Part shown: positions 464 to 41,622 of the stretch, piece by piece | Layout: each line of letters opens with the position of its first letter | Position numbering within the stretch: position 1 is the first letter of the stretch | DNA from: Planctomycetota bacterium | GTDB lineage: Bacteria; Planctomycetota; UBA11346 | DNA length: 64,000 bases | Direction: 5' to 3' | Assembly (NCBI GenBank): GCA_017302815.1 | Contig: JAFLCQ010000003.1 | Coordinates: forward strand, 2,042-66,041 | Position numbers and translations under genes: made by a program | The notes under the pieces: generated by a model | The model's input: the letters and a program-made list of their open reading frames with translations, nothing else | What the model was told of the DNA's origin: nothing | Databases searched by the model: none

Positions 464-522
464 CAGCGCGAGATGCCCATCGGCGCCAGGGCGCATGGCA
501 CGGCAACCGTGCGCCCTGGCCA

Positions 523-660: not shown

Positions 661-684
661 TCCGCGCCAGCAGCCGCGGGCCCG

Positions 685-1956: not shown

Positions 1957-2093
1957 GTCAGCCTGTACCGCATGCAGACCGCTTCGGCAACCCGTGCCGG
2001 GCGCATGAACCGGCCGTCATGTGGATGTGCCTGCCGCGCCGGATGGCCCATGAGACCATCCGGCGCCGGTTGTCGCCCGTTTCACTCGGCAGT

Positions 2094-2573: not shown

Positions 2574-2817
2574 GGCTGACTCCGGGGTTGAGGTGGGTAG
2601 CGGCCACTGGTAGCGGGGGCCGTAAAACGTTGTGAACTCGGCAGTTGTCTCATCCGGAGCTACGCAATTCAGCGTGAGACAAACCCCGTCCTGATGACGT
2701 TTTCTGTCTATGCCCATCGTCGTCGGCTTCCGCTGGCCCTGACAGCGGCCGGAGACACCCCCGCGTCGTGTCGCTGGAGGCAACTGGCGCGGGGGAGTGC
2801 ATGGACACACTGCCGTC

Positions 2818-3525: not shown

Positions 3526-3533
3526 ACAGCCAT

Positions 3534-8086: not shown

Positions 8087-10302
8087 TGCCGATGCCCCTG
8101 CCCGTCCGGCGCGACCGGACCCAGGTCAGGTGCGACGTCTGGGATGCGTAGCCCAGCCAGCACCAGGGCATCGACCGTCCGCTCCATGGGATGCCCGACG
8201 CGGTGCTGCAGGTGGTATTGGAGATGCGCCGCCCCGATGCGATCGACCACCGCCTGCGCATCGGCGCGGTGGCCGGCGCGCGCCAGGGTGACGGCCTGCA
8301 GCGCCTGCAACTCGGTATGGTCGGGGTTGATGCGCAATCCGCGCCCGACCGCCCGGGACAGGTCGGTGGCATCGCCGCGCGCCAGGGCTTCATAGGCCAG
8401 GATCAGTGGCGGATACATGCTGTCGGGCTCGGCACCGCTGGCGACCAGCCCCAGGTGCTGGGCGCTGTGCAGATCCCGCTGCGCCAACGCCGCCCGGGCG
8501 GCGGCGATCAGGGGCCAGAAGTCACCGGGCCGATCCTGCAGCACTTCCCAGGCCCGTGCATCGATGGCTGCCGCCGGGGCGAAGGCGGCCATGACGGCGC
8601 CGGCGCTCTCCGGCTCGGCCAGCGCCGCCGCCGCATCCACGCCTGCCGGAAGCGCCGGATCGTGGGCCTGGAAGCGGCTGACGGCGCAGACGCGCCCCAG
8701 CGCCCGCCATCCCGGTGTCGGTCCGCCGCTGGCGAGGGCCTGGGCTGCACGAGCGGCCTCGACCGATTGGTTCCGCTCCGCCGCGGCACGCCACGCCCAG
8801 ACCAGCGCCTCAGCGATATCCACGGCCAGGGGATGATCGTGCCAGGTCGGCAGCGCGGCGGCGCTGCCCAACTCGATGCCGACGCCGGCCAGTGCGCTCT
8901 GCCACTCCTGGGACTCACCAGGCCATGGGCCGGTACGCCGGACATGATCAAGCAGCTGCCGGAAACGGAGACGCTGTTCGGCGAGCCGTGTCTGCTGGGC
9001 CAGCACATCGCCCGCGGCGCGCAGGCGTTCGGCGAGGGCGTGCGCCTCCGGCAGACCGGGATGGGACGCGAGCAGCGCTTCCACCTCGGCCTGGGCCACC
9101 CGCACCGCCTCGGGTCGGTTCAGGTCGACGGCGGCAGCCATGCGTTCCACCCGCTGGACAGCGGCCTGCCTGGCGTCGTGGAGATGCAGCCACCAGGCGC
9201 TACCCACCACGGCGAGGAGCAGGATGGCCGAACCGGCAGCCATGCGGACCTGCTTGGAGTGCCGAAGCCGCAACCAAGCCCGTTCAAGCCGCCCGGCCTC
9301 CTGGGCGACCGTGATGCCCTCATCAAGCCAGCGCCGGAGTTCGGCCACGATCGCACCTGCATCGGGGTAGCGCTGGGTTGGCTCGGACAGGCAGCGCCGT
9401 ACCACAGCAGCAAGGCCTCGTGGGACGTTCCGGTCCTGCAACCGGTCGAGTTCGAGCAACCCCGGCCGGCCAGGATCGGGACGCGGTCCCTGGCCAGTCA
9501 GCACCAGGTGCAGCAGGGCGCCAAGGGCGAAGACGTCCATCCGCGGATCGGCTGGCGCCCCCATGGCCTGCTCGGGAGCCATCCAGGCCGGGGTGCCGAC
9601 CCGGACGCCATCACCCTCGCCAATCCGAGCCGCAACGCCCCAGTCGAGGACATAGACGGCACCGAAATCCGCAACCAGGATGTTGGCCGGGGTGAGATCC
9701 CGATGCACAACGCCACGACTGTGGGCGAAGGCGATGGCCTCGACAGCGCGCAAGAAGACTTCGACCAGGGCGATGGCTGGTCGTGGTTCGTCACGCAGAC
9801 GTTCATCGAGCGGACGGCCGTTCAGACGTTGCATGGTGAAGGCCGGACGCCCCTCGGCACGGCCGATGTCGTAGATCGGCGGGATGGCCGGATGCTCCAG
9901 CGATGCGGTCAGGGCGGCTTCGCGCCGGAAGGCCTGGGCGCGGAGATAGAACTGGTCCAGGCTTTCGTCGATACCACGCGGCTTGAGGACCTTCAGGGCG
10001 ACATCACGTTCGAGGGATGCGTCTGCGGCGCGCTGCACCACCGCCATACCGCCCTCGCCAATCACATCCCCGGCATGCAGACGGCTGCGGGAGGGATCGG
10101 CAACAAACCCAGGCTCAGGTGGTGCCTTCAGTGGCATATCGAGATGCACCTGCGTCATCTGGGATTCCGCGTCACCCAGGAGACGTCCAACCTCCTCGTC
10201 GGGCTGGTGCTCCAGCCACTGATCGATCGCGGCGAAACGGTCTTTGGGCAGCGAACCGCGCAGATAGGCGGCAAGCTCCGCGGGCGTGGGTGCGGGATCC
10301 AT
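8080..10302 (-). CDS. Ser/Thr protein kinase with TM segment and long helical/TPR-like C-terminal domain
   Basis: Hanks-type motifs: VALKVL, HRDLTPANILV, LDWGVA (DFG-equivalent) and GTPAWMAPEQ. A hydrophobic segment AAGSAILLLAVVGSAWWL precedes about 380 aa of Ala/Leu-rich helical repeats. It is the last gene of the cus-like operon. Confidence 0.85.
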   Translation of the reverse strand: MDPAPTPAELAAYLRGSLPKDRFAAIDQWLEHQPDEEVGRLLGDAESQMTQVHLDMPLKAPPEPGFVADPSRSRLHAGDVIGEGGMAVVQRAADASLERDVALKVLKPRGIDESLDQFYLRAQAFRREAALTASLEHPAIPPIYDIGRAEGRPAFTMQRLNGRPLDERLRDEPRPAIALVEVFLRAVEAIAFAHSRGVVHRDLTPANILVADFGAVYVLDWGVAARIGEGDGVRVGTPAWMAPEQAMGAPADPRMDVFALGALLHLVLTGQGPRPDPGRPGLLELDRLQDRNVPRGLAAVVRRCLSEPTQRYPDAGAIVAELRRWLDEGITVAQEAGRLERAWLRLRHSKQVRMAAGSAILLLAVVGSAWWLHLHDARQAAVQRVERMAAAVDLNRPEAVRVAQAEVEALLASHPGLPEAHALAERLRAAGDVLAQQTRLAEQRLRFRQLLDHVRRTGPWPGESQEWQSALAGVGIELGSAAALPTWHDHPLAVDIAEALVWAWRAAAERNQSVEAARAAQALASGGPTPGWRALGRVCAVSRFQAHDPALPAGVDAAAALAEPESAGAVMAAFAPAAAIDARAWEVLQDRPGDFWPLIAAARAALAQRDLHSAQHLGLVASGAEPDSMYPPLILAYEALARGDATDLSRAVGRGLRINPDHTELQALQAVTLARAGHRADAQAVVDRIGAAHLQYHLQHRVGHPMERTVDALVLAGLRIPDVAPDLGPVAPDGQGHRHH

Positions 10303-10305
10303 GGG

Positions 10306-10491
10306 CTAGGCGGATACAGGCGCATCGTCGATGCGATGCGGATCGGCGCTGGGAACCACCGCATCAGCCGCCGTCACGGGTGGCGGCACGGATGGCCGAC
10401 CCTCCATGATCGTGCGCAGCCGTTCAGCCAGTGCGAGCGCCGCAGCCGCCGCATCGGGATCCAGCGGATCAGGGACTTGCGGCGTGATCAT
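10306..10491 (-). CDS. Small Pro/Ala/Asp-rich hypothetical protein
   Basis: 61-aa ORF that exactly fills the gap between the cusA stop (10495) and the kinase start (10302), with 3-nt spacers on both sides. No recognisable motif. Confidence 0.35.
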   Translation of the reverse strand: MITPQVPDPLDPDAAAAALALAERLRTIMEGRPSVPPPVTAADAVVPSADPHRIDDAPVSA

Positions 10492-10494
10492 GCC

Positions 10495-13400
10495 CTATGT
10501 CCCGGCTGGACCCGCATCTGGCACAGGCGTTGGTGCCGGTGGTGCCACCAATGCCGCCTGACGCTGCAGCTTCCGCTCCCACCACCAGGCGTAGAAGACC
10601 GGGACGCTGAACAGGCTGATGTAGTCGGCGAGCATGCCGCCGATCACCGGCAGGACCATCGGACGCATCAGTTCGGCGCCGCGGCCGTCGCTCCACAGGA
10701 TGGGGATCAGCGCCAGCAGGGTGGTGCAGTTGGTCATGATGGCCGGACGGCGACGCCGCAGGCCGGCCTGGAAGACGCGCTGGTGGACATCGGGGATGGT
10801 CGTCGGCGCGGTCTTGAACAGATCGTGGAGGTAGGTGCCCAGCAGGATGCCATCATTGAACATGACGCCCAGCAGCACCAGGAAGCCGACGATCACCGCC
10901 GTGGTCATCTCCGCGCCGTAGAGGTAGACGGCGATGAAGCCGCCCGCCGTCGTGACGGTGACGTTGCAGGTGATGATGATCGAGGTGGTCAGCAGCGAGC
11001 GGGTGCCCCAGAGGATCAGCACCAGCATCACGCCCATCGCCATGCCGATCACCCAGGTCATGGTCTGGTCGGCCTTCATCTTCTGCTCGAAGCGTCCGAC
11101 CCAGCGATAGGTCGCACCGGCCGGCAGGGTCAGTTCGCCCCGCTTGATCGCCTCCTGGAGCATGCGGTCGGCCTCGCGCACGACCTCGACCTCGGCACGG
11201 CCGCGGGCGTTGAGCAGGACGTACTGCGTGCGCTTGCCGCCCTCGCTGCGGATCGCCATCGGGCCGATCGTCCAGGTGACGGCGTTGGGGTCGTCGCGCT
11301 TGGCGGTCACCGTCACCTGACCCGGTGGCGGCGCGGCCACGCCCGGTGCCAGGACCGTCAGCGGATCGACGATGCCGGCTGGCAGCGGATCGCCTGCCGG
11401 GATGGTCAGCTCGGCCAGGGTTGGCGAGAGCGGCGTCAGGTTGCGTCCGATGGTCAGCGACTGGCTCTTCCGCCACGCCTCGGGAGTGATGCCATCGAAG
11501 CGCAGGGTGTAGACGGTCGGCGAGGCGGTGAGTAGGTTCAGGGCGATGGCGCCGTGTCCGGCCGCGACCGGCACCTGGAGCTGGGCGAACTCGTCGGCGT
11601 CATCGCGACGCTCGCGCGGGTAGCGGATGCGCACGTTGTAGCGGAGCGTGCCTTCGACGGAGGCGATGATCGGCATGCCGCCCAGGGCGGATTCGACGGT
11701 GGTGAGGAGCTGCTCGGCGGTGATGCCGAAGCGCGCCATCTTGCGCTCATCCAGGCGGATCTCGGCGTAGGGCTTGCCCCCCTCGCGCTGCATCTGCACA
11801 TCGGCCGCGCCGGGGACGCGCTGGACGACCTTTTCGGCCTGCTCCGCGAAGTTCTCCAGGGCCGCCTGATCATCGCCGAGGATCTGCAGGGCCATGAGCG
11901 AGCGGATGCCGGTCGACAACATGACGACGCGGGTCTCGATCGGCTGCAGCCAGCTCGGCGCGACGCCGGGGATGTCGCTGGCGGCGCCCAGGGCCTGGCG
12001 CACCTCGGCCAACGTCCGTGGACGGGTCTGGGTGGTGCCGTCGGGCAGGGTGATCTCGTGCACCGGCCATTCGTGGTAGGGCTTGAGCAGCACCACGGTC
12101 TCGATCATGCCGATCGGCGCCGGATCGAGGGCGGTCTCGGCCCGCCCCATCTTGCCCATCAGCGCCGCCACCTCGGGCACCGAGGCGATGGCCTTGTTCT
12201 GCTGCATCATCACCCGCTGGGTCTCGCCCAGGCCGGCGGTGGCCGGGACCGAGGGCATGAACAGCAGCGAACCCTCGTCGAGGGGCGGGAGGAAGCTGGC
12301 GCCGATACCGGGGAAGGCGCGACGCATGGCGGCGTCGAAGCGGGTCTGCGTGATGTCGGCGCCGACCAGGGCCAGGCCCTGGCGCAACGGCCAGCTCACC
12401 GTCGACCAGCCGGTTCCCAGCATCCAGCCGAAGAGCGCGACCGAGGCGATGGTCAGGGTGAAGGCGACCTTGTGGCGCAGCATGCGGGTCAGCGCCCAGT
12501 CGTAGGCGATGGCGATGCCGTGGCTGACCGGGTTCTCCTCGTAGCTGACCAGCTCTTCGCGGCCGAGGCGCCAGACGGCGTAAGCGGCGAGCATGGCGCC
12601 CAGCGGCGCGGCGATGAGGCCCGGCAGGACCACGGCCCAGCGGCCATGGTCGAGCGGGATGCGCAGGCCCTCGGGCAGCAGGATCATGAACACGATGCCG
12701 GCGAGCAGGCCGGCGAACGCGAGGATCACCGGCTTGCGCGTCTGCCACGGCGGCAGCAGCAACCGGCACAGCACCGGGACGAGCAGCATGCCGAAGATGA
12801 CGGCGGCGCCGATGGCCAGGGTCTTGGTCGCGGCCAACGGCTTGAACAGGCGGCCGGCCTGGTCGTCGAGGAGGAAGATCGGAATGAAGCTGATGATCGT
12901 GGTCGCCGCAGCGGTCAGCAGGGCGCGGGACACCTCGCTGGTGCCGGCGATGACGGCGTCGACGACCTCGGGATCCATCGGCGAGCTGGGCGGTGGCTTG
13001 CCTTCGCGATGCCGCCGCTCCTTGAGCATGACGAGATGCTGGGTGACGTTCTCGCACACCACGATGCCGAAGTCGACCATCACGCCGATGGCGATGGCGA
13101 TGCCGGCCAGGCTCATGATGTTGGCCGACATGCCGAACAGGCGCATGGCCAGGAAGGTCGACAGCACGCCCAGCGGCAGGGCCAACGCGACGGTCAGGCT
13201 GGCCCGGGCATGGAGCATGAAGATGACGATGACCAGGCAGGTGACGATGAGCTCCTCGATGAGCACACGGGCCAGGGTCTGGTTGGTCTCCAGGATGAGT
13301 TGCGACCGGTCGTAGAACGGCACGGCGACCAGTTCGTCCTTGGCGAGCGTCGGCGACAGGTCGTTCAGGCGCTGCTTGACCGCCCCGATGACCGTCTTGG

Positions 13401-18050: not shown

Positions 18051-18454
18051 GGTGGAGATCCTTGGGGGTACACTCTATAATGTCGCCCCGATGTCGCCTG
18101 TTCCACGTCGGTTGAAGAACCCCTGGCGAATCGAGAGGCATGCATCGCGCAGTTTATTGCCAGAACAGAAGTTATGATCCGCAGCGTGGGTGTGGACGCT
18201 TCGCCGCCAGCGAGCCGTTCCCCACACATTCGGGCATGGCGTCATCGGTTGGAGGCGGACCCAGGCCTCACCTCCATGGGGAACAGGTCGTCGAGCCAGG
18301 CGGTCGGCTTGGAAACATGGATAACGTCACCAACAGGCTTCGTGTCTCAGGCTGCATCGCCCAACATATGGCGAGACAACCCACATGGCCTTGACGTATT
18401 CTTCATGAAAGGCGGCCCTCCACCCTCCGCCTCACCCTGACTAAGGAGCCCGCC

Positions 18455-18886
18455 ATGCGCCTCTCGCTCATCACCACCCTGATCCTCCTCGCTGCCAGCG
18501 TCTTCGCCGCCGATACGGCCACGAACACCGCCAAGCCCTGGTACATCGGCCCCAAGGGCGGCGACGTCCGCAAGGGGCACACAACCTCGCCCCGTGAACT
18601 CTGGGTGGCCATCCACGGCACCGATGCGGTGCCGGCCACTGCCGCCGCGGCGTCCCCGAAGCCCTGGTACATCGGCCCCAAGGGCGGCGATGTCCGCAAG
18701 GGGTACGCGCCCTCGCCCCGTGAACTCTGGGTGGCCGTCCACGGCACCGATGCCGCGTCGGCTGCTGCCGTCGCGGCGACCCCGAAGCCCTGGTACATCG
18801 GCCCCAAGGGCGGTGACACCCGCAAGGGGCACACGCCCTCACCCAGTGAACTCTGGGTTGCTGTCCATGGCAAGGAAACACGTTGA
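18455..18886 (+). CDS. Secreted repeat protein, PWYIGPKGGD-repeat family (3 tandem 42-aa repeats)
   Basis: Signal peptide MRLSLITTLILLAASVFA, then three units KPWYIGPKGGD(V/T)RKG...SP(R/S)ELWVA(I/V)HG. RBS-like aaggag lies 7 nt upstream of the ATG. Confidence 0.75.
   Translation: MRLSLITTLILLAASVFAADTATNTAKPWYIGPKGGDVRKGHTTSPRELWVAIHGTDAVPATAAAASPKPWYIGPKGGDVRKGYAPSPRELWVAVHGTDAASAAAVAATPKPWYIGPKGGDTRKGHTPSPSELWVAVHGKETR
18533..18886 (+). repeat. Tandem 126-bp coding repeat, about 2.8 copies
   Basis: aagccctggtacatcggccccaagggcgg recurs at 18533, 18659 and 18785, a period of 126 nt (42 codons). Confidence 0.9.
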
Positions 18887-18901
18887 ACACTTGGGACCAA
18901 G

Positions 18902-19495: not shown

Positions 19496-19747
19496 CTAAC
19501 GATTTGCAAACTGTTCGACGTCGTCGATGTCCAGGGTGAAGGCGTAGGTGTTGAGTCCGGCGACGACGAAGCCCGAACTCTCTTCGAGGATCATGTAACC
19601 GCCAAACTCAGCCGCGAGTTCGGTGCGGTTCACCGACTTGCGGAGCGTGAAACCACGACGATGCAGGCGACGGCGGAGGTTGGCTTCCTTCTTAGCCCGC
19701 TCAGTGGGTGTTAGGGTGGTAAAGGTTGGGTCCATGGAAGGATCCAT
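19496..19747 (-). CDS. Hypothetical small protein
   Basis: 83-aa ORF with a basic N-terminal half (KKEANLRRRLHRRGFTLRKS) and GGYMILEESSGFVVAG..TLDIDDVEQF. No function recognised. Confidence 0.45.
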   Translation of the reverse strand: MDPSMDPTFTTLTPTERAKKEANLRRRLHRRGFTLRKSVNRTELAAEFGGYMILEESSGFVVAGLNTYAFTLDIDDVEQFANR

Positions 19748-19915
19748 ATTGGAAACCCGTCCAAGCCCTCGATTAATCGGAGACTTGGATGGGAGGTTGA
19801 AGTCCTACTAGGCATTCCCATTTGATCGGGAACGCCATGCAGGCGTTATTGGTCAGACCGTCTCAGTATCCGGAGCCGGATCGGAAAACGGCAGTTCAGT
19901 TCGGATGGAGATACC

Positions 19916-20335
19916 CTAGTTGCTTAGTTCGATCCGTTTGACGTCATTGATGTTGCCCACGATGCAGGTCTTCAACTGGTCCAGCGACCGGACGACGACG
20001 CCCGCTCGCAGCCAGATGATGCTTCCTGCGGGAATCTCAGTGCCCACCGGCAGCACGATCGCCCCACAGCCGGCGACGACTCCCGCATCCATGGCGAAGT
20101 CGTGGACCCAAACTGGTCCAATGATCGAGCAGGAGATCCACGACGCGCCAGTGATTGCCGGGGATCCAGCAGCGAGCGAAGCCTCGATGGCCTTCTGATT
20201 ATCCCAGATTTCGTCGATCGAGATGTAGAGGTCGAGATTCGACAGGAGTTGCTGGATGTGGTCATCCGCGATCGGTTCTGCGTCGTAGAGTCGGGCGACG
20301 ATCGTGTTGATCGATTTCTGTGAAGTGGAAGACAT
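19916..20335 (-). CDS. Hypothetical protein (lower-GC cargo gene)
   Basis: 139-aa ORF with protein-like composition and visibly lower GC than its surroundings. No motif recognised. Confidence 0.5.
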   Translation of the reverse strand: MSSTSQKSINTIVARLYDAEPIADDHIQQLLSNLDLYISIDEIWDNQKAIEASLAAGSPAITGASWISCSIIGPVWVHDFAMDAGVVAGCGAIVLPVGTEIPAGSIIWLRAGVVVRSLDQLKTCIVGNINDVKRIELSN

Positions 20336-20468
20336 GGCTAGATCCTGGATGCTGGTTACGCGGCAATCGCAGATGCGCGATTCGTTGGCAGTTCCGGCCT
20401 CCGAGGCGAGAACAGCTCGGCATGTATCCTGTTGAGATGGGTCAACATGCCGGTCGTCGGTGCTCGAC

Positions 20469-20502
20469 CTCCGTCATCGTCCCTATCAGGACGATGACGG
20501 AG
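20469..20502. repeat. Perfect 14-bp-stem hairpin in intergenic region
   Basis: ctccgtcatcgtcc (20469-20482) and ggacgatgacggag (20489-20502) flank the loop ctatca. It lies about 135 nt downstream of the VWA gene on the minus strand. No U-tract. Confidence 0.6.
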
Positions 20503-20636
20503 CGTGGGCCCGGTCTGTGTAGACGGCTCGGGCAATCGCAAGGCTTGTCATCATGGCCGCGCGCGGGGTTGAATCTGCCCCCAAGCGGCCTGATTTTACA
20601 CCCAGTAGGGGTGGTTTCTCGCCAGTTTTGGGCGCG

Positions 20637-21812
20637 TCAGGACTCGACCCGGAGCACCAGGCCCCATGATGCCGGCGGGCGCCCGTTCTTCGTAAGTGCC
20701 CAGATTACATCGACCTGAGGCTGTTGCCGTGGCGCGGGCCCGAGGCCGTCGGTGAAGTAGACAACGAGCTCTGTCTGTCTGTTTTCGAGAAATGCAGACT
20801 CAAGCGGCGGCCGAAAGTCTGTCCCTCCACGTCCCTCGGCCATGTCCAGGGCGCCAGAGAACGGGTACTCGCGCTGGATGGCGGCGTCGCACTCGACTAC
20901 CGTCCATTCGGCCGTGTCCGCCAACCTGCTCAGGATGGCGGAGATCGATGCCAGCGTCGCACCATCGATGCTGCCGCTGGTGTCCACCACCGCGTTGGCC
21001 TTGACCTTCCGTCGTACTGGTGCGATCGCCGGGACCACGCCCAGCAGGTGCGGCGCTCTCCTGGAAGGCCGGTCGAAGCGATATCCGCGAGTCCTGGCCC
21101 ATCCCGTCCTGGCTTCCAGATCCCGTTGCAGTTCGTGGACCGTAATGTCGCGTGTCAGCTGCGGCAGGCGTTCCATCGCTGACCCTGATCGGTTCCCGAT
21201 ACTCGGGAAACGGCGACGAAGTCGCTGCAGATCTTCGGCATCATCCTTCAGGTTGATGCCGCCAGCCAGGATTTCGTCAACCGCGCTCCTAATCTGTGCC
21301 GTGACCATGGTCTCGTTCTCACGCAGTTGGCGCCAGCCATCATGCGAGTCCAGGGTGGGATCCCCGAAACCAGCATTCGGCTGATCGGTCGTAGCCAGGA
21401 TCCCGTACCGTTCGCGGGTATCCGTATCGAGCGGGAGCTGCGGGTAGTCGCTAAGGACGATTGGCTGTCCAGGCAAGTCGTCCAACCCCTCGTTCACCGT
21501 GACCTCCTGGGCGATGCGCAGGGCGCCCCAGTCGGGCCATTCGGCCGGATCCATGAAGCAGTGGCCGTACACCACATGGCGGACCTCGTGCATCAGCACG
21601 CCCACCAACTGGTCCCGCGTGATGGCCATCACAAAAGCGGGATCGTAGAGGAGGGCGATACGATCGCCCTCCCAGCAGACGCCCATGGTGCCGATATCCG
21701 ATGCCGCAACTCGCCACTGCGCCACGATGCCACCCAGCAGCGGGTGACGATCCAGGAGGCGGCGGATCCCGACCTGCATCGCGCTGGCTGCCAGTAGTGC
21801 ATCAGTCGCCAT
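20637..21812 (-). CDS. HExxH metallopeptidase-like + VWA domain protein (DUF2201-type)
   Basis: N-terminal half carries the zincin motif LMHEVRHVVYGH. The C-terminal half carries a MIDAS-like VVDTSGSIDG. This two-domain layout and its pairing with a MoxR-type ATPase match the DUF2201_N/VWA-like family. Confidence 0.7.
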   Translation of the reverse strand: MATDALLAASAMQVGIRRLLDRHPLLGGIVAQWRVAASDIGTMGVCWEGDRIALLYDPAFVMAITRDQLVGVLMHEVRHVVYGHCFMDPAEWPDWGALRIAQEVTVNEGLDDLPGQPIVLSDYPQLPLDTDTRERYGILATTDQPNAGFGDPTLDSHDGWRQLRENETMVTAQIRSAVDEILAGGINLKDDAEDLQRLRRRFPSIGNRSGSAMERLPQLTRDITVHELQRDLEARTGWARTRGYRFDRPSRRAPHLLGVVPAIAPVRRKVKANAVVDTSGSIDGATLASISAILSRLADTAEWTVVECDAAIQREYPFSGALDMAEGRGGTDFRPPLESAFLENRQTELVVYFTDGLGPAPRQQPQVDVIWALTKNGRPPASWGLVLRVES

Positions 21813-22785
21813 CGTTGAACTCCCGGATGGCTTCAGTGAGCATTCCGCGGAACTCGGCCGGCAGATCCTTGGCTAGCAGCGGCATATGCTTGCCCCAACG
21901 CCGCCGCTGTGCCGGTGACCGCTGCTCGTTCGGATTCGCGATCGTCAGCATCACTGACTTGACCAGCTTGTTCAACTGAGCCGTGTCGTTCTTCGCTGAT
22001 ATCTTCTTGATCAGCCCCCGGTAATCGGGGTAGCCGTCGAGCAGAACCGTGGTTTCGGGCAGCAGCATGCCACCCTGGGCCAAGAAGGCGAGGAAGGCCG
22101 TCGCCATCTTGTCGCCAACCAAACCCGAGATGCAGTTCATCTGCATCTCCTTTCCTGCCTTGGCGCTCTCAAGCTCCTTCAGCACCGAGCTGACCGCCGT
22201 CCAGGCCCGGGGGTTGCTTTCGGACGCCTCGAAGACGTCTGGCATCCACTGGATGAAGCCAATCACCAGGGGATGCACGTCATGCCGCCCAGCCCAGGTC
22301 AGCCACTGCGTCTTGTCCGGCTTGACTTCGATCCGCATGAACCGGGCTTCGAGGGCGGCGTCCAGCTGTCGTGTGCCGGTGTAGCCATCGCGAGCCGGAT
22401 TAATGGCCGCCACGGGCAGCCAACCCGGCGGCAGCACATAGTCGTTCAGCCGCCGCGCCGTCAGCAGTTCCAGGGTTGGAGCCAGCATGTAGGGCTGGGC
22501 GCGGTTCAACTCCTCCAGTACCAGGAGCCCATGCCCTGTGGTGGGGAGGAAATCAGGCGGAGCGAAGCTCGTCCGCCCTGACGCGATCGTCGGGATCCCG
22601 ACCAGGTCGGCGGGTTCCATGAGCGAGAGATCGCGCATGATATAGCCGATATCGAACGCGGCCGCCGCCTGCTGGAGGATCTCCGACTTGCCAAGCCCCG
22701 TTCCACCGACGAGCAGCACTGGCTGCTTTGCCTGATAGGCGATGGAGATCATATCGATGATATCGCTGCCGATGGAGATGGCCAT
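21802..22785 (-). CDS. MoxR/AAA_5-type AAA+ ATPase
   Basis: Walker A LLVGGTGLGKSE, Walker B GLLVLEELNRA, sensor AAINP and LDAALEARF (Arg finger region). 11-nt overlap with the downstream VWA gene. Confidence 0.75.
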   Translation of the reverse strand: MAISIGSDIIDMISIAYQAKQPVLLVGGTGLGKSEILQQAAAAFDIGYIMRDLSLMEPADLVGIPTIASGRTSFAPPDFLPTTGHGLLVLEELNRAQPYMLAPTLELLTARRLNDYVLPPGWLPVAAINPARDGYTGTRQLDAALEARFMRIEVKPDKTQWLTWAGRHDVHPLVIGFIQWMPDVFEASESNPRAWTAVSSVLKELESAKAGKEMQMNCISGLVGDKMATAFLAFLAQGGMLLPETTVLLDGYPDYRGLIKKISAKNDTAQLNKLVKSVMLTIANPNEQRSPAQRRRWGKHMPLLAKDLPAEFRGMLTEAIREFNDGD

Positions 22786-22788
22786 GGC

Positions 22789-23808
22789 TCAGCCCTCCAC
22801 CTTGGCATCGACGCTCGCTACGTCAGCTCCGGCCGGCGCGATCTCGTTGTCAGTTCCAACCTCAGTCACCCTCTCGGTTTCGATCTCAACCTCTGCCTCA
22901 GCTTCGGTCTCGACCGGCACTCTGTTGCGAAGCGAATCTTTCCCAGCGTGCGTCAGTTGGCGACCCTTCGGGGTGATCTTGACCCAGTCGAGCGTGTTCA
23001 GGTAGGGTTCGATGTGGCTCTGGATATACTCCCCAGGCTGGCGGATCTGCAGCGCAATGGTTTCCAGTGCGGCGACGCCACCCAAACGACTCAGGGCGGC
23101 GAGGTAGCTCTGCTGCAGCGAATCGCGATGGTACTGGTCGAATCCATGCGTCTCGAGGAAGCGCCGAACATCGCCCTCTTCGATCTGGATCTGTTCCTGC
23201 CCGCTGAGGCTACCTGCCAATGTCTGGATGCGCTGGCGGGCCAGCCGCGGGTTCCCCTGACTAGCGGCGGCGAGCAGCGTGATCGCCTGCGGCGTGAGCA
23301 GCAGTTCCTCACTAATCGTGATGCTCTTGATGATCAGGCGCATTTCGTCCGGCGTGTAGGGCGCCATCGGGATGACCAGCGTACAGCGCCCGTGTAGCGC
23401 CTTGGTCAGCAGATGCGGCTGGTCCGTGGCCAGGATGACGGTGCACACCGGACAGTCGCACTTGTGCAGGTTCTTCTTACTGGCCGCCTCCATGAAGCTG
23501 TACAAGCCTTCCTGGGAGCGGCGCGGCAGAGCGTGGGCTTCATCGATGAACAGGATGTCGTGGCTCTGGACTTCGGTCAGGGTCGTGGGGATGTTGAGAT
23601 CCCGGTCGGCAACGACCACACGGAACGTGGCATCCATCTCCATGGCGATGGCCTTGGCCAGTTCCGTTTTCCCGATGCCTGACGGCCCGATCAACAGCGT
23701 ATGGGGCATCAGGCGACCACGTTGCTTGGCGCCAGCCGCCTGGGTCCTGAGGATCTTCACTGCTTGGCGCTGACCGATGAATCCATGGAACGACTTCGGG
23801 GCGGTCAT
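22789..23808 (-). CDS. RuvB-like AAA+ ATPase paralogue
   Basis: Collinear with RuvB over its whole length: FIGQRQAV, LLIGPSGIGKTELA, ILFIDEAHAL, EGLYSFMEA, GNPRLARQRI (sensor 2) and a C-terminal winged helix EPYLNTLDWVKITPKGRQLT. It is atypical in having a Cys cluster HKCDCPVC and an acidic Glu/Thr/Val-rich tail. Confidence 0.7.
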   Translation of the reverse strand: MTAPKSFHGFIGQRQAVKILRTQAAGAKQRGRLMPHTLLIGPSGIGKTELAKAIAMEMDATFRVVVADRDLNIPTTLTEVQSHDILFIDEAHALPRRSQEGLYSFMEAASKKNLHKCDCPVCTVILATDQPHLLTKALHGRCTLVIPMAPYTPDEMRLIIKSITISEELLLTPQAITLLAAASQGNPRLARQRIQTLAGSLSGQEQIQIEEGDVRRFLETHGFDQYHRDSLQQSYLAALSRLGGVAALETIALQIRQPGEYIQSHIEPYLNTLDWVKITPKGRQLTHAGKDSLRNRVPVETEAEAEVEIETERVTEVGTDNEIAPAGADVASVDAKVEG

Positions 23809-24017
23809 GACACCACCTCCTGGTCGATCGTCAGTGAATCCGATACGTCTTGTGTGGTGCAGATCACCCAGCGGTCATCGTGGATGATCGTCTCGACGCT
23901 CTCGGGCTGAGGATTGGCGTCATCGAGGAGGTTTGAGTCCAGGATGACGGCGTCGTTCTTCTCGTTGTTTTCAGCGACCATCGCGATCGGCATGACGCCG
24001 GTTGACGAGATCGTCAT
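23805..24017 (-). CDS. Small acidic hypothetical protein
   Basis: 70 aa from ATG 24017 (the track gives a TTG start at 24068). Asp/Glu-rich. ATGA-type 4-nt overlap with the RuvB-like gene. Confidence 0.45.
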   Translation of the reverse strand: MTISSTGVMPIAMVAENNEKNDAVILDSNLLDDANPQPESVETIIHDDRWVICTTQDVSDSLTIDQEVVS

Positions 24018-24257
24018 TTCGGCGGCACCCGGATGATCCGAGTGCCGGCAAGAATACTTGTTACGCAAGGTAACCTCTGTGCGCCATAGGCGCAGATGTA
24101 GAACTAACCGAAGACGTCAGCGACGTCTCAAGCTCGTTGCGCAGTTACCTTGTAGGTGACCTGCGGTATCGTTCGACTTCGACGGCCTCATGGCCGCATC
24201 TTCTTCTTTGGCTGCTGAAACGGCAGCCACGCGCTGGCCCAAAAGGGTGTCTTTGGA

Positions 24258-24267
24258 CCCCCCCCCC
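24258..24267. repeat. C10/G10 homopolymer tract
   Basis: ggaCCCCCCCCCCgtg, ten consecutive C. It lies in a roughly 760-bp segment with no convincing gene. Confidence 0.9.
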
Positions 24268-24827
24268 GTGATGGGACAACTTCCACTGGTATGCAGACTT
24301 CAAGGAGCCGACCGTGATCACCGCGCTCCGACTCGGTTGGCACTCCCAGGTGAGGAGGGCGCCAGCCGGACGCAGCCGCTAAACCACCTCGGTGCCAAGC
24401 ACCAGGTAGCTGCAGGTGATGATCGTGATTGCCAGGGCCAGCGGCCCGGTGGACTTGGGTTTCTCGCACTACCTGCCCTTGGGGGCCGGTGCCGTTGGGG
24501 CTCGGAGTCGTCTCCGGCGATCTGGCGCTGCAGCCGTCTCGGCCATGTAGCGCGCTCAGTAGACCGGCTTCAGTAGCAATGTGGGTTCCCATTGCAAGCA
24601 ACTTCTTGCATCTTGAAGTGACAACGGTTTACGACGCAGCGATTGGTCAGCTCGCGAAAGATCCAACTGTCAATGGTGGCGGACCTAGTCGCCAGCGACT
24701 CCCCTGGGTTCGATCATGGAGCCCGACCCCGGAACACGGATAACTCGCAAACCATTGCTCGCGCTAACGTTGCAGGAATGATGCGGTTGAAGAGGCGAGG
24801 AACGGTCCGCAAGCGTCGCCGGCGACA

Positions 24828-26260: not shown

Positions 26261-29200
26261 ATGTCCGTCCCCTCCTCCATCCTCCCCTTCATCTCCCGTC
26301 CCGACGGACGCTGGAAGGTCGGCAGCCTCGATGGCTGGGTCTACGATATCGAGGTCTTCCCCAACTTCTTCTGCGTGCAGTTCTTCGACGGCGTCGACTC
26401 GAAAACCTTCGATCACACGCAGTTCCCTGACCTGGTGCGGTTCGTAACCGACACGGCGAAGGTCCTCATCGGCTTCAACAACTCCAGCTACGATGACGTG
26501 GTCCTGCGCGCGATCTGCCAGAATCCGACGCGCATCACTACGAACGAGATCTACGAACTGAGTGGTCTCCTCATCGCCAAGCGCGAAACGCTCGCGGAGC
26601 CGCAGATCAAGGAGCGCAATCTCCTGATCTATGCCTACGGGCGCAACCCGTGGGCCTTCTCGGTCGACCTCCACCAGGTCACCAATCGCAAGGCTGGCCT
26701 CAAGGAATATGAATGCCGCATGGGCCTGCCGACGGTGGCCGAGAGTCCGGCCGCCTTCGACCAGCCGGTGACCGAAGTGCAGATTCCCGAAATCCTGCGC
26801 TACAATCTCGTCGACGTCAACGCCACCTCGTACCTGCTGGAAAAGAACACCGAACTGGTCGAACTCCGCCATACCCTCTCCGAGCAGTACGCGCTCGGTA
26901 CTCGGATCTACAGCATGGGCGATGCGAAAATCGCCGAGCACTTCGTGCTGACAGCGCTGGAGCGCAAGACGGGTACCGAACCCAGGACGCTGCGGAACCT
27001 GGCCCAGAACTCGCCGAACAATAGGGCCAAGCAGTTCCCGGTCGCTGGACTGCTGCCGTACTCGGTGAACTTCACGACGCCGGTGTTCCAGCAGCTGTTC
27101 GAGACCCTGAAGGCCGGTAGCATCCAGCGCCAGTCCAACGGGGCTCTCGAACTGGACACGGAGCTGCCGGGCAACCAGGCGGTGGTGAACGGACTCACCC
27201 TGAACTTCGGTCGTGGTGGTCTGCATTCTGACGATGAGCCGGGCGTCTTCACCAGCGATGACATGGCGGAAATCTGGGACGTTGATGTGACGAGCTACTA
27301 CCCCGGCATGATGATCGCCTACGGCATCCGGCCGCATCATGTGCTGCCGGCGTTCACGGACGAACTGCGCAAGCTGCGCGACCAGCGGGTCGCCGCCAAG
27401 AAGGCGGGGGACAAGATCACCTCCGAAGCGCTGAAGATCGTCATCAACTCGGTTTTCGGCAAGCTCGGCGATCTTTACAGCCCGCTGCGGGATGACTACG
27501 CCTGTATGCAGGTTACCATCGGCGGTCAGATCCTGCTCCTGCTGCTGATCGAGGCGGTGCAGGTCGCTGGAGCGACGGTGCTGTCAGCGAACACTGACGG
27601 CCTGCTGCTCCGGGTGCCGGTGGACAAGGCGGCGGCCATCTACGCAGCGCTGCGCTCCTGGGAGACCACGACCTCGCTCGCGCTGGAGGAGAAGGCGTAC
27701 AAGACCGTCGCTCGCCGCGACGTGAACAACTACATCGCCATTGCGTCCGAGCCCGACAAGAAGGGCAACCTCGACATCAAGTCGAAGGGCTGCTTCAACG
27801 CCGATGCGACCAAGCTCTCGGGTCGCATCGTCCCGCTCGCAGTTCAGGAGCATCTGCGCACCAGCCTGCCGATTGAGACGATCATCGCGAACCATGGGAA
27901 CGCGGCTGACTTCCTCTACTACCAGCGTTCCCAGAGCGACGGCCATTTCGAGCGGGCTGGACAGCAGCTGCCGCGCACCGTGCGTTGGTACGCCTCCGCG
28001 GACGAGGCGGCGCCGATCGAGCGGGTGAGCCCCACGGGTGCGCGCGCCACGATCCCCAACGCACACCGGACCGCAATCGCCATCGAACTGCCGTCGGGTT
28101 TCACGCGCGCCGATCTCCCCGGCCTGGACGTCCAGCATTATGTCACCCAGAGCCAGAAACTGCTCAACGGCGCACTCGCCGGACCGCTGGTCGAGCGGGG
28201 TACCACCCAGGCCAGGCGGCTCCAGGAAATGGGTCTCATTCTCCTGCCGCAGCGCGGGGGTATGAATCCGAAGGGCATCACGCTGGATGATCTGGACACG
28301 ATCCGGTCGCTCGCGAACCGGCGCTGCGAGACCTGGGGCATCATCACCGGCCCCAACACCCAGACGCTGGTGCTCGACCTCGATAAGATCGAGGTTCTCA
28401 ACCCCACGCTCATCGAGATCCTGTCCGCTCATCCGACGCTCACGACCTGGCATGGCGAGGGCAGCGCGGACGCGGTGCGTGCCGGTCGGAAGCGCGGCGC
28501 GGTATGCTTCCACTATGCCGGTCAGGACGCTCGGATCTATACCCGGCGGACCAAGCCCTGGCTCAACAAGCATGGCTTCGAGGTCGCCTTCGGCGCCAAG
28601 ATCCAGACCGTCATCGGCCAGCATCGCGACGTGGGCGACAACTACGTCCAGGACGGCGAGGTCGCCGATGCTCCCGAGGCGCTGATCGAGTTCATCGGGC
28701 TGCGCAGCGGCCTGCCCAAGAAGCGGCGGCAGGATGAGGCCCATACCGACGCAGGCGATCTCGATCGCCTGCGCCTGGCGGCCGATGCGGTCTTCGGCAA
28801 CGGATGGGCTCGGCCGTTCAACGCCCGTGACGGTCTGAGTGGCGTCGAGGGGACGGTGCCTGGGTACGAGCGGCGTTCAACGCTGCGGCTCTGGGTCAGC
28901 GCGGGGCGGGTCAGCGGCTTCACCTTCCACGCCAACTTCGATACGCGCAGCCGGGTGCAGATGATCCAGGAAGCATATGATCGGCTGCTGCCGCCTGGTG
29001 GAGGTCCTGGCGGTGGCGGCACCTCCACTGCCGGAGACGAACATCATGGTCCGGCCGCTGGCGACGATCCGGCCCATCTCGACGCTTCCGATGCGCCGGC
29101 GATGCCGAGCGAGGAGGATCGGCGCGAGGCCACGAACTGCGCCGACGCCTTCGGCCAGATCACCAGCGTGGGAGTGGTCATCGGCGCCACGGGAACGGGC

Positions 29201-31357
29201 AAGTCCTGGCAGGCCGTCACCCGCGCCATCGAACGGCACGAGCAGGACCTGTTCACCCTCCTGGTGGCGCCGGACAAGGAGGGCATCGAGCAGATGCGGA
29301 AATACCTCCTCAAACAGTGGATCGACGCCGGACGCGTACCGGCGGAACTGTGCATGGAGATCCTGGTCAGCGCGCGCCTGCCGTCCGACACTGAGGATGA
29401 TGGAAGCGATGCGACCGGAGCCTCGGGCGGTGAGATCAAGACGAGCACGCGGATCGTGATCACCCATCACCACTTCGCGTCGCGGAAGCCTCTGACCAGG
29501 TTCCTCTACTCTGCGCTGACCTGGGTGCGGGAGCACCTCGCCGAGGTCATCCTCGATGAGGCCGACCTCTATATCGAACGGCAGAACCATCATCTCCAAC
29601 TCGACAACCGCTACATGTTGATCGGCGGTGCCAAGGGTCAGTGGACGCGCGTCAATCACTGTCCCAGCGCCAAGGGCCAGTTCCGCTGCAAAACCTGCCA
29701 TTTGCGTTCCGGCGGTCGGGTCACGAACCTCGGAACCCACATGGCCTACCGCGCGGCTGCCACTATCGTACCCAGCCAGTTCTCACAGCCGCTGGACGAG
29801 GAGTTCACCATCACGTCAGAGAACCTGTCAATCGAGCAGACCATCAACCTGCCGACCCTCAACCTGCGCCTTTCAAGTCTGGCGCAGACGCCGAAATACC
29901 TCACCCAGCGTGACTTCAGCCAGCAGCGCAAGCCGCCCAAGCCTGGTGAGGAGCAGCCGACGCCGCAGCAGGAGATGCTTGGGTACCTCCGGGATCTGAT
30001 CGATTGCTCGTACCAGCCGACGCTGGCGGAGCCCAAGCTGGTCGATGCGGACATGCAGATTGTCGAGGCTGACCCGCACGTCACGGCCAGCGCCGACGCT
30101 GCTGATGCCGATGCCGCTGCGACGCCGGTCTTCGACAGCGCCCATTCGGCGTCCTACCATTTCCCGTGGTTCGTCTGCAATGCCCGCTTCCTGCTGCTCT
30201 ATGACCGCGCGGCCGTCTTCTTCCTGATGAGGCACGCGAGTCGGCTGATCCTGATGTCGGCGACGATCGACGAGCAGCACATGGCCTTCCTGCGCAGCTG
30301 CGCCAACGGCCGGTCGGTCACCGAAGTGCGGATCGCCACCACCACCTACCAGCCGCTTGACCAGGTCGTCCTCATCGGCCATCAGGGACGCATCGCCTGG
30401 ATGGACCCGCTGGGCGAACGGGCGGCCGCGGCCATCGGCTGCAACTACAGCGATGTCGGGGTGAGCAACCGCACGACGATCGAACGGCTCGGCAACGCGC
30501 TGGCCGCAGCCGGCAGGCCGCCGCTCATGTTCATGCCGACGAAGGAGGATGCCCTAGCGGTGTTCGCGCGGATGAAGGAGAAGGGTTGGACCTTCTACAT
30601 CGAGGGTGAGTACCGCATGCATATCGGACAGGCAGTGGCTGAGTCCCAGACCACCGACGGTTCCCTGGGCCTGCTCAGCTACAGCCGGAGCGCCCTGGGA
30701 ACGGGCATGAACCTGCCGCAGTACATGGTCGCCGTGGTCGACGGCACCGTCCGGCGCCCCCATTATGTGTTCAACCCGGCCCTGAAGACCGAGGATGCCT
30801 ACCTCGAAGCCCAGGAGATGGATCGGGTGCACATCATGGTCCAGAATGTCGGGCGGATTCTGCGGGGGACCGGGGTGAAGTTCGTATTCGTGGTCGGGAT
30901 CTCCCCGGGACAGCTGGCGAAGCTGGCCAAGGAGGTCGAACGCCTGGCGCAGGCGCCAACCGCATCGTGGTTCACGCCTGATGATACGGTCACCGCCATG
31001 GCGACGCTGGTGGCCAGCGTGAAGGCCGGTCAGCTCGTGGTCCCGGACGTACCGAAGCCGGAACCCAAGACCCGTAACCGGCAGAGCAGGAAGCAGCGGG
31101 CGGCGGCGGACGCAACGTCAGATCCGGTTGAGCGCCTACAGGCGGCGATAGCCAAGGTCCAGGAGCGAGCCAAGGACGGTGCAACGTGGCGTGGGGCCGC
31201 TAGGGCCGCGAATGTCGCACGCTTGCCCAAGGCGGAACAGGATCAGGTCAGGGCCGCCTTCGAGGCTGCAATCACTACTGGCGGAGTTACGAACACCGAA
31301 GGACCGCAGGCCGCTGAGGACGACGTTCGGGACGATGCCGACTCCGTGTGGACCTGA
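26261..31357 (+). CDS. Giant replication protein: family-B DNA polymerase + AEP primase-polymerase + SF2 (DEAD/H-type) helicase fusion
   Basis: PolB 3'-5' exonuclease motifs are YDIEVF (ExoI), NSSYDD (ExoII) and YNLVD (ExoIII). Polymerase motifs are A DVDVTSYYPGMM, B KIVINSVFGKLG and C SANTDGLLL (aa about 1-640). The PrimPol-like part is WGIITGPNTQTLVLDLDK ... GAVCFHYAG (aa about 655-815). The helicase has Walker A GATGTGKS (975-982), ILDEADL (1097-1103), MSAT (1332-1335) and QNVGRILRG (motif VI), with an inserted CPSAKGQFRCKTCH zinc-ribbon-like element. Confidence 0.75.
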   Translation: MSVPSSILPFISRPDGRWKVGSLDGWVYDIEVFPNFFCVQFFDGVDSKTFDHTQFPDLVRFVTDTAKVLIGFNNSSYDDVVLRAICQNPTRITTNEIYELSGLLIAKRETLAEPQIKERNLLIYAYGRNPWAFSVDLHQVTNRKAGLKEYECRMGLPTVAESPAAFDQPVTEVQIPEILRYNLVDVNATSYLLEKNTELVELRHTLSEQYALGTRIYSMGDAKIAEHFVLTALERKTGTEPRTLRNLAQNSPNNRAKQFPVAGLLPYSVNFTTPVFQQLFETLKAGSIQRQSNGALELDTELPGNQAVVNGLTLNFGRGGLHSDDEPGVFTSDDMAEIWDVDVTSYYPGMMIAYGIRPHHVLPAFTDELRKLRDQRVAAKKAGDKITSEALKIVINSVFGKLGDLYSPLRDDYACMQVTIGGQILLLLLIEAVQVAGATVLSANTDGLLLRVPVDKAAAIYAALRSWETTTSLALEEKAYKTVARRDVNNYIAIASEPDKKGNLDIKSKGCFNADATKLSGRIVPLAVQEHLRTSLPIETIIANHGNAADFLYYQRSQSDGHFERAGQQLPRTVRWYASADEAAPIERVSPTGARATIPNAHRTAIAIELPSGFTRADLPGLDVQHYVTQSQKLLNGALAGPLVERGTTQARRLQEMGLILLPQRGGMNPKGITLDDLDTIRSLANRRCETWGIITGPNTQTLVLDLDKIEVLNPTLIEILSAHPTLTTWHGEGSADAVRAGRKRGAVCFHYAGQDARIYTRRTKPWLNKHGFEVAFGAKIQTVIGQHRDVGDNYVQDGEVADAPEALIEFIGLRSGLPKKRRQDEAHTDAGDLDRLRLAADAVFGNGWARPFNARDGLSGVEGTVPGYERRSTLRLWVSAGRVSGFTFHANFDTRSRVQMIQEAYDRLLPPGGGPGGGGTSTAGDEHHGPAAGDDPAHLDASDAPAMPSEEDRREATNCADAFGQITSVGVVIGATGTGKSWQAVTRAIERHEQDLFTLLVAPDKEGIEQMRKYLLKQWIDAGRVPAELCMEILVSARLPSDTEDDGSDATGASGGEIKTSTRIVITHHHFASRKPLTRFLYSALTWVREHLAEVILDEADLYIERQNHHLQLDNRYMLIGGAKGQWTRVNHCPSAKGQFRCKTCHLRSGGRVTNLGTHMAYRAAATIVPSQFSQPLDEEFTITSENLSIEQTINLPTLNLRLSSLAQTPKYLTQRDFSQQRKPPKPGEEQPTPQQEMLGYLRDLIDCSYQPTLAEPKLVDADMQIVEADPHVTASADAADADAAATPVFDSAHSASYHFPWFVCNARFLLLYDRAAVFFLMRHASRLILMSATIDEQHMAFLRSCANGRSVTEVRIATTTYQPLDQVVLIGHQGRIAWMDPLGERAAAAIGCNYSDVGVSNRTTIERLGNALAAAGRPPLMFMPTKEDALAVFARMKEKGWTFYIEGEYRMHIGQAVAESQTTDGSLGLLSYSRSALGTGMNLPQYMVAVVDGTVRRPHYVFNPALKTEDAYLEAQEMDRVHIMVQNVGRILRGTGVKFVFVVGISPGQLAKLAKEVERLAQAPTASWFTPDDTVTAMATLVASVKAGQLVVPDVPKPEPKTRNRQSRKQRAAADATSDPVERLQAAIAKVQERAKDGATWRGAARAANVARLPKAEQDQVRAAFEAAITTGGVTNTEGPQAAEDDVRDDADSVWT

Positions 31358-41355: not shown

Positions 41356-41622
41356 ATGCCCCACTCCACGACCATGGTCGCGGGGCTGCGCCGTCTTCTC
41401 AGCACCGAGGAGGCGAGCATCTACCTCGACTGTCATGTGCGGACCATTCCCCGCCTCATGGAAAGGGAGGTGAATCCGCTCAAGGCATACCGTATTGGCC
41501 GCATCCTGAAGTTCCGCCAGGAAGATCTCGATGCCATACTTGAGCCGGTGAACACCGACTCGGCCGCGTCGACCTCCCTGGAGGACTTCGTCGACCAGCA
41601 GTTCCAGACGGGGGCGCCGTGA
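41356..41622 (+). CDS. Excisionase-family HTH DNA-binding protein
   Basis: LLSTEEASIYLDCHVRTIPRLMEREVNPLKAYRIGRILKFRQEDLDAIL fits the excisionase/HTH_17 pattern. 4-nt overlap with the integrase gene. An alternative start lies at 41374. Confidence 0.65.
   Translation: MPHSTTMVAGLRRLLSTEEASIYLDCHVRTIPRLMEREVNPLKAYRIGRILKFRQEDLDAILEPVNTDSAASTSLEDFVDQQFQTGAP

Follow-up and report, generated by a model that had tools for sequence, protein, structure and literature searches.

RuvB is regarded as the dedicated partner of RuvA and as the branch-migration motor of Holliday junctions. The locus described here, in a stretch of 64,000 nucleotides (nt) from a Planctomycetota bacterium (GenBank assembly GCA_017302815.1, contig JAFLCQ010000003.1; the whole 64-kb stretch is from now on referred to as the window), raises the question of what a gene for a RuvB-like AAA+ ATPase is doing directly upstream of genes for a MoxR-type ATPase and for a zinc metallopeptidase fused to a von Willebrand factor A (vWA) domain. 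These three genes and a small acidic open reading frame (ORF) in front of them lie on the minus strand in operon-like packing (Table 1): the small ORF overlaps the RuvB-like gene by 4 nt, 3 nt separate the latter from the MoxR gene, and the MoxR and protease-vWA genes overlap by 11 nt. A first-pass annotation made from the sequence alone had taken the four as one operon. The ORFs and their junctions are as described there, but only three of the genes make up the conserved unit, since the small ORF is an orphan. The trio is found in other genomes in the same order, and we tentatively propose that it takes part in conflict between genetic elements.

When the RuvB-like protein was compared with a collection of 5.8 billion proteins, its nearest non-identical matches formed a group at 33–40% identity, followed by canonical RuvBs at about 30%; an identical protein is recorded from a metagenome-assembled genome of Planctomycetota. 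In all seven cases located on complete contigs (the window, P0002, P0005, P0006, P0007, P0015 and P0019) the RuvB-like gene stands directly upstream of a MoxR gene and a gene for the protease-vWA protein, which belongs to DUF2201. A reverse search, using an alignment of the protease-vWA protein against one genome per species, returned 80 loci, and in 15 of these (L008, L010, L011, L013, L016–L024, L028 and L039; L010 is on the same contig as L005) a RuvB-like gene is immediately 5' of MoxR. The same order with tight junctions was seen in these 15 and in L001–L006, L089, L094 and L096, altogether about 20 distinct loci beyond the window, with identities of 28–40% except for the closest relative. 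In the seven cases on complete contigs the second junction of the trio is usually a 4-nt overlap. The ORF calls are noisy in those loci from Myxococcota that are very rich in GC. The loci belong to Planctomycetota, Myxococcota, Verrucomicrobiota, Thermoanaerobaculia, an Alcaligenaceae bin, a Kuenenia bin and an unclassified proteobacterium. Clustering of the neighbouring ORFs of 19 loci showed that these three families alone are common to more than two loci and that the flanks all differ. The co-occurrence expected in the first-pass annotation was thus found, the genes not being scattered, and the recurrence of one order in loci that otherwise share nothing excludes an adjacency by chance. The trio spreads horizontally and has the patchy distribution of an accessory system.

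Some of the loci carry altered forms of the genes. In two Planctomycetota bins, L020 (2566–3579) and L039 (6949–7992), MoxR is split into two ORFs, which points either to a frameshifted pseudogene or to an error of assembly. In L007 (116–1033) a chimera of 305 amino acids (aa), P0048, has the N-terminal two thirds of a RuvB-like protein in frame with the last ~60 residues of a DUF2201 vWA domain, and its sequence looks like the result of a deletion of MoxR and most of the protease-vWA gene. We regard both the split MoxR genes and P0048 as decay products of the kind met in accessory systems with a fast turnover.

The MoxR and DUF2201 genes also occur as a pair without a RuvB-like gene, in L009, L012 and L087 and in ~55 Polyangiaceae loci within L025–L086 (Sorangium, Minicystis, Chondromyces), one example being strain So ce56 of S. 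cellulosum, near 6.65 Mb. In the myxobacterial pairs MoxR is longer by a helical C-terminal extension of ~100 aa, which shows no similarity to the RuvB-like protein. On the Sphaerotilus sulfidivorans plasmid NZ_CP035707.1 (L097, 1925–6080) a hypothetical protein of 592 aa, MoxR and a VWA-like (DUF2201) protein are encoded in tight packing, with a 4-nt overlap between the latter two and with a DUF262 (GmrS-like) gene and transposases next to them; the 592-aa protein takes the place upstream of MoxR that the RuvB-like gene has in the trio. The pair-only loci together with the 592-aa protein make the pair look like a core that accepts alternative third components. A search of plasmids found distant pairs only.

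Of the trio loci, L089 is a predicted viral contig, where an SNF2 helicase adjoins the trio; it was the single trio obtained when 2.9 million viral contigs were scanned in a pattern-limited way. A phage origin was considered and rejected: the pairs in the phage database are distant (~25% identity), the RuvB matches there look ordinary (~30%) and the viral trio is only one.

To place the limits of the unit the window was compared with its closest relative (L001/L002), in which the three trio proteins are 83%, 88% and 93% identical at the amino acid level. At the DNA level positions 19732–23809 are 87% identical to L001 and the similarity ends exactly at the start codon of the RuvB-like gene, positions 23810–24202, with the small ORF and its leader, having no counterpart. 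The small ORF has no Pfam match but a coding-like base composition, judged from the GC content of third codon positions (GC3, 0.79), and is probably coding. A HMMER search of 1.84 billion representative proteins found, besides its own entry, no more than two matches, both weak, partial and to long proteins, and the ORF at the corresponding position in L001 is unrelated and not coding-like. Being an orphan in that collection and non-homologous in the nearest relative, the small acidic protein is a local orphan and was rejected as a fourth component. The 139-aa gene 3' of the trio is, on the other hand, shared with L001 (89% aa identity) and absent from the other trio loci. The ratios of nonsynonymous to synonymous substitution rates between the window and L001 are 0.11–0.22 for the three trio genes and 0.25 for the 139-aa gene, so that all four shared genes are under purifying selection.

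Two structured elements had been pointed out in the first-pass annotation. The leader upstream of the small ORF does contain perfect arms of 9 nt (24066–24074 and 24144–24152), but its fold is weak (z = -2.3) and not conserved in L001. Likewise, the 14-bp hairpin between the protease-vWA gene and the 139-aa gene is perfect in the window, while it lacks a T-run and is imperfect in L001, where the changes are non-compensated. Beyond the non-homologous segment an 84-nt non-coding patch is again 86% identical to L001. It includes a G-run at about 24255–24264, which is G10 in the window and G6 followed by TT in L001, and is possibly a promoter or regulatory site with a homopolymer of variable length.

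The first of the three proteins derives clearly from RuvB. It matches Pfam RuvB_N (1.6e-23) and RuvB_C (7e-9), and an alignment with the RuvB of T. maritima spans the entire protein. Its AlphaFold2 model (predicted local distance difference test, pLDDT, 86.6) has the three-domain RuvB fold of large ATPase domain, lid and winged-helix head, and when compared with the PDB using Foldseek the best 45 matches were all RuvB (target-normalised template modelling score up to 0.87), clamp loaders coming next. Residues K47 of Walker A, D89 and E90 of Walker B, the arginine finger R141 and G185, P187 and R188 of sensor 2 are invariant in all 40 aligned sequences, and since these ATPase motifs are kept the protein is likely to form an active ATPase ring. 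The Walker A and B, sensor 2 and winged-helix assignments of the first-pass annotation are thus confirmed.

It is however not a RuvB orthologue. Its scores fall below both NCBIfam equivalog cut-offs for RuvB (NF000868, 166.9 against 282 bits; TIGR00635, 137.5 against 299.05 bits), and a simple distance tree, built roughly by neighbour joining, sets the trio-linked RuvB-like proteins and those close to them apart from the named RuvBs. Nor was a ruvA or a second ruvB found within the window. These results bear on the simplest explanation of the locus, that the host ruvB happens to stand beside an unrelated MoxR-vWA pair. RuvB is indeed the best match of the protein both in family and in fold, but the scores, the separate position in the tree, the lack of a ruvA in the window, the loss of a RuvA-docking element (below), the placement in a low-GC island and the repetition of the three-gene order elsewhere all speak against it. 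We consider such a coincidence extremely improbable and effectively excluded, and the gene is not an ordinary host ruvB.

In the RuvAB complex domain III of RuvA docks on RuvB's presensor-1 beta-hairpin, and DNA is held by four arginines of the RuvB head domain (Arg291, 310, 312 and 315 in S. thermophilus) (Wald et al., PMC9477746). When aligning the window protein with T. maritima RuvB, the presensor-1 hairpin was found to be deleted (~10 residues fewer), a deletion common to its sub-clade, and the AlphaFold2 model has no hairpin between residues 110 and 123. The other trio-linked RuvB-like proteins carry an insert of unrelated sequence at this position. Among the head-domain arginines, the equivalent of R315 alone is invariant (R283 of the window protein, within a GR motif); at two nearby positions the window protein carries K, and where RuvB has Arg291 the trio proteins have G, A or P. 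Compared with RuvB, the trio protein therefore shares the three-domain fold, Walker A and B, arginine finger, sensor 2 and the winged-helix head with GR, and differs in the RuvA-docking hairpin (deleted here and diverged elsewhere), in the Arg291 equivalent, in the lack of a nearby ruvA and in being linked to MoxR and DUF2201 in every case examined.

The site of the deleted hairpin is filled in the window protein by the cluster HKCDCPVC, which, together with an acidic C-terminal tail, had been noted as a distinctive feature. Both are present, but both are confined to a sub-clade of close relatives. The cluster is restricted to relatives at 81% identity or more, one of which has N for H, and a relative at ~46–50% identity has no cysteines at all at this place, wherefore a family zinc site was rejected. 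The acidic tail goes with the same sub-clade and, with a pLDDT below 50 in the AlphaFold2 model, is probably disordered; as a family-wide trait it was also rejected, the tails of other members being acidic, basic or absent. As a separate observation, a second RuvB-family gene, 25% identical to the query, is found on the Verrucomicrobiota contig of L005/L006 (812–1783, minus strand), 6 kb from the trio and adjoining a tyrosine integrase, possibly a further non-canonical RuvB on a mobile element.

The second protein is a short MoxR (AAA_5, 35.3 bits against a Pfam cut-off of 22) with the Walker A sequence GxxGxGKS and an EE variant of Walker B. In the alignment K33, E91, E92, N129 of sensor 1 and the arginine finger R148 are invariant, and in the PDB the family profile matched NorQ, CbbQ and the AAA domains of midasin. 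The third protein consists of DUF2201_N, a putative metallopeptidase domain (37.8 bits against 23.2), and the vWA-like DUF2201. In 79 homologues H75, H79, H84, E103 and E108 are invariant and E76 nearly so, the HExxH with a downstream glutamate ligand making up a minimal gluzincin-like pattern, and the metal ion-dependent adhesion site (MIDAS) of the vWA domain is complete, with D277, S279, S281, T331 and D355 invariant. The reading of HEVRH and DTSGS as a peptidase motif and a MIDAS in one protein thus holds, and as these residues are conserved both activities are likely to be retained. The AlphaFold2 model of the protein (pLDDT 90.2) has no close solved relative according to Foldseek; the vWA part gave weak matches to the ArnB paralogue VWA2, NorD and alpha2-delta, the peptidase part weak matches to the minigluzincins selecase and abylysin (E about 0.04–0.2) and insignificant ones to IrrE, ArdC and SPRTN (E 0.25–0.9).

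With its AAA+ ring and MIDAS-bearing vWA adaptor the trio resembles NorQ-NorD, CbbQ-CbbO, RavA-ViaA and the Mg-chelatase BchI-BchD, the last of which, like the trio, joins one vWA domain to two modules of AAA+ type. Unlike these classical pairs the trio has no linked metabolic client gene, its vWA protein carries a protease and its second ATPase is of RuvB type. A closer parallel is offered by four MoxR-vWA-centric ternary conflict systems, whose third components are VMAP, an inactive STAND NTPase, FtsH or a vWA-fused beta-propeller, and which are reported to be concentrated in deltaproteobacteria, planctomycetes and other bacteria of multicellular habit (Kaur et al. 2020, PMC7159879). A second AAA+ ATPase, which the trio also has, is present in the FtsH type, reported from deltaproteobacteria, actinobacteria and planctomycetes (PMC7159879). 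Common to these systems and the trio are a core of MoxR AAA+ and vWA, a third conserved component and overlapping taxa. The differences are that the third component of the trio is a RuvB paralogue, that its peptidase is N-terminal to the vWA domain whereas in the described systems peptidases are among the variable C-terminal effector domains, and that its MoxR is below the Pfam threshold for bpMoxR (17.8 against 27). The word RuvB has no occurrence in that paper.

The two-gene core itself has been described from jumbo phages of group 2.2, as MoxR and a vWA protein with an N-terminal metallopeptidase, with a proposed role in virion assembly (Iyer et al. 2021, PMC7824862). It is the same core of an AAA_5 MoxR followed by a metallopeptidase-vWA protein, the window proteins matching the corresponding phage families (MoxR, phrog_1297, 2.4e-55; protease-vWA, phrog_1314, 6.3e-28), but the phage pair has no RuvB-like gene and only ~25% identity to the trio proteins. 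The first-pass annotation had not recognised the combination, and in literature on DUF2201, COG3864 and MoxR+vWA+RuvB no description of the trio was found; the pair is already described, and what seems new is the addition of the RuvB-like protein. The trio looks like an undescribed ternary variant of the MoxR-vWA systems.

The phage pair leads to another explanation, in which the trio is a chaperone for assembly or maturation of proteins, has no role on DNA and uses the RuvB-like protein as a second remodelling ATPase or as a client. Such a function has been proposed for jumbo-phage virions and for the tail of Acidianus two-tailed virus (ATV) and shown for NorQD and CbbQO. The membership in the two phage families, the pair in group 2.2 phages (PMC7824862), the resemblance of the vWA domain to NorD and of MoxR to NorQ and CbbQ, and the trio on the predicted viral contig L089 are all in line with it. 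Against this stand the single trio obtained from the scan of viral contigs, the absence of consistently linked structural or client genes, and the winged-helix head with its invariant GR motif that the RuvB-like protein retains from a DNA motor. A pure chaperone is in our opinion improbable.

When the surroundings of the cassette were analysed, it was found to lie in a stretch of ~62% GC (roughly 18–37 kb) between flanks of ~69% GC, and the tyrosine integrase adjoins a gene for tRNA-Gly (Table 1). Because of the low-GC stretch and the integrase beside the tRNA gene, mobile island is a fair description, with the trio riding as cargo on what the sequence indicates to be an integrative element, as the first-pass annotation had assumed. 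The island boundary is given by GC content alone; attL/attR repeats of the tRNA-Gly 3' end were sought as island termini and none was found. Between integrase and cassette are encoded DUF932, an ATP-dependent ligase, a DnaB-like helicase, a PD-(D/E)XK nuclease and a helicase-like ORF of 1698 aa. An Rfam scan of 17–45 kb matched only the tRNA, and the long gap upstream is therefore without a known RNA, while a scan for promoters and terminators gave counts not above those of shuffled sequence.

Table 1. Features of the trio locus and of its island, with positions in the 64-kb window.
Feature	Position	Strand	Remarks
Small acidic ORF, 70 aa from ATG at 24017	23805–24068	-	GC3 0.79; orphan
RuvB-like AAA+ ATPase, 339 aa	22789–23808	-	Pfam RuvB_N + AAA + RuvB_C
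Short MoxR-type (AAA_5) ATPase, 327 aa	21802–22785	-	Pfam AAA_5; phrog_1297
Zinc-metallopeptidase + C-terminal vWA fusion, 391 aa	20637–21812	-	Pfam DUF2201_N + DUF2201; phrog_1314
139-aa gene, 3' of trio	19916–20335	-	Conserved with L001; no family match
14-bp perfect inverted repeat	20469–20502		Without T-run
Leader inverted repeats, 5' of small ORF	24066–24152	-	z = -2.3
84-nt patch with G10 run	24203–24286		86% identical to L001
Tyrosine integrase of island	41619–42968	+	Pfam Phage_integrase 1.5e-12
tRNA-Gly(GCC), likely island integration site	43157–43233	-	Adjoins integrase

Mobile genes are also found around the other trios. Among 106 ORFs flanking 14 genomic trios Pfam identified four tyrosine integrases, two serine recombinases, two matches to coupling proteins of type IV secretion systems (T4SS), two ParB and one IstB, these being plain counts in a sample from a set of about 20 loci. 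An integrase is located just 5' of the trio in L013 and another is present in L005, a D5_N/DUF5906 primase-helicase is just 3' of the trio in L023, and L001 has DnaB and IstB as neighbours. In L096 an excisionase-type helix-turn-helix (HTH) gene, HTH_17, is directly 5' of the trio, and by eye small HTH-like ORFs were seen upstream of it in L003, L020 and L023.

From these neighbours it could be suggested that the trio is a DNA-processing or switching device for the replication, recombination, excision or induction of the element itself. The RuvB-like protein would then act on DNA intermediates of the element, and MoxR, vWA and protease would load or unload it, or remove or cleave a DNA-bound protein such as a repressor or a relaxase-type protein, much as metalloproteases of the ImmA/IrrE type cleave repressors. 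The presence of a related DnaB-like helicase gene both in the window and in L001, the frequent integrases, serine recombinases, ParB, T4SS coupling-protein matches and D5_N/DUF5906, the HTH genes just described and the weak resemblance of the protease domain to IrrE, ArdC and SPRTN fit such a device. However, element-core genes are not consistently linked to the trio, some of the loci have the context of a defence island and not of an element core, the structural matches to DNA-linked proteases are insignificant, and the pair without the RuvB-like gene is common in Polyangiaceae genomes. A function in the life cycle of the element is a possibility to be kept in mind, though we think it rather unlikely.

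Known defence genes were found next to some of the trios. In L017 the trio follows directly after the Wadjet genes JetC (2.8e-188) and JetD (4.7e-58), within 86–5724. In L008 the trio has as neighbours an HmaA helicase of full length (1590 bits) together with a HEC-07-like gene, and on its opposite flank a C5 cytosine methylase (7–5120 and 9214–11853). Defence systems were shown to be frequent among the genes that are nested in Hma loci (Payne et al., bioRxiv 10.1101/2024.01.29.577857), in a paper where MoxR, vWA and RuvB are unmentioned, but as helicase and methylase in L008 are on opposite strands a true Hma embedding is not claimed. L004 has HipAB and a WYL regulator as neighbours and L003 a reverse transcriptase and a caspase.

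Having the Wadjet and HmaA/HEC-07 neighbours in two loci as some support, we return to the proposal that the trio acts in conflict between genetic elements, either in defending the host or the element against phage or other invading DNA or in counter-defence. The first-pass annotation had suggested an anti-phage or anti-host module, or else a device that remodels replisome or recombination complexes for the element. It is based on the conserved trio, the distinct RuvB clade, the intact chemistry and the patchy horizontal spread, on the neighbours from mobile elements and defence, the decay products and the exchangeable third component, and on the precedent of the MoxR-vWA ternary conflict systems, one of them with FtsH (PMC7159879). 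Several results weigh against it. A comparison with PADLOC-DB v2.0.0 (2023), suggested in the first-pass annotation, gave no significant full-length match for any trio protein, the protease-vWA protein having no match and the two ATPases short generic P-loop matches only. Known defence genes are beside a minority of the trio loci, none was recognised in the island of the window, and the replication and recombination genes of that island (DnaB-like helicase, ATP-dependent ligase, PD-(D/E)XK nuclease) would fit maintenance of the element equally well. Furthermore, just one of the four RuvB head-domain arginines is invariant, leaving DNA binding by the RuvB-like protein putative, and the acidic tail, a proposed MIDAS ligand, is not kept across the family. 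We give a role in genetic conflict somewhat less than an even chance.

How such a system might operate can be outlined from these computational results, every step of the outline being inferred. The RuvB-like protein would form an ATP-driven ring that binds or tracks DNA by means of its winged-helix head, and would do so without RuvA, whose docking hairpin is lost or diverged. The MIDAS of the vWA domain would capture an acidic ligand, either a target protein or, by way of the acidic tail that it has in this lineage, the RuvB-like protein itself, and the MoxR ring would use ATP to remodel the complex of vWA and ligand. The fused gluzincin domain might then cleave the captured protein, turning a DNA-linked signal into proteolysis. 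A RuvA-free, RuvB-derived ring would in that case be the DNA-sensing or tracking subunit that licenses a zinc protease via MoxR and vWA, a new class of NTP-dependent immunity or anti-immunity on integrative elements; taken as a whole this model is doubtful and is put forward as speculation.

Should the model be true, this would be the first RuvB-type motor acting outside Holliday-junction processing. A widespread lineage of RuvB paralogues tied to MoxR, vWA and protease would show the motor recruited for another job, and the RuvB-like protein would be a fifth kind of third component in the MoxR-vWA ternary systems. If the function is defence or counter-defence the immune repertoire of Planctomycetota and Myxococcota would be extended, two phyla poorly served by catalogues derived from E. 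coli. The trio would also offer a tractable system of three proteins in which to study how a protease and a MIDAS adaptor are coupled to two AAA+ rings.

Two further observations were made in the island of the window. The 1698-aa ORF (26261–31357, plus strand), just upstream of the HTH neighbour of the cassette, has a strong coding signal (GC3 0.83) and is essentially unannotatable, with a weak DEAD-box match as its sole family match and no match in PADLOC. Where the low-GC island seems to have its left edge, a unit of 126 nt is present in three tandem copies (18509–18886), these being 100%, 84% and 74% identical to the reference copy. The repeats lie inside a minus-strand ORF (18403–18900, GC3 0.82) and would there encode a protein repeat of 42 aa.

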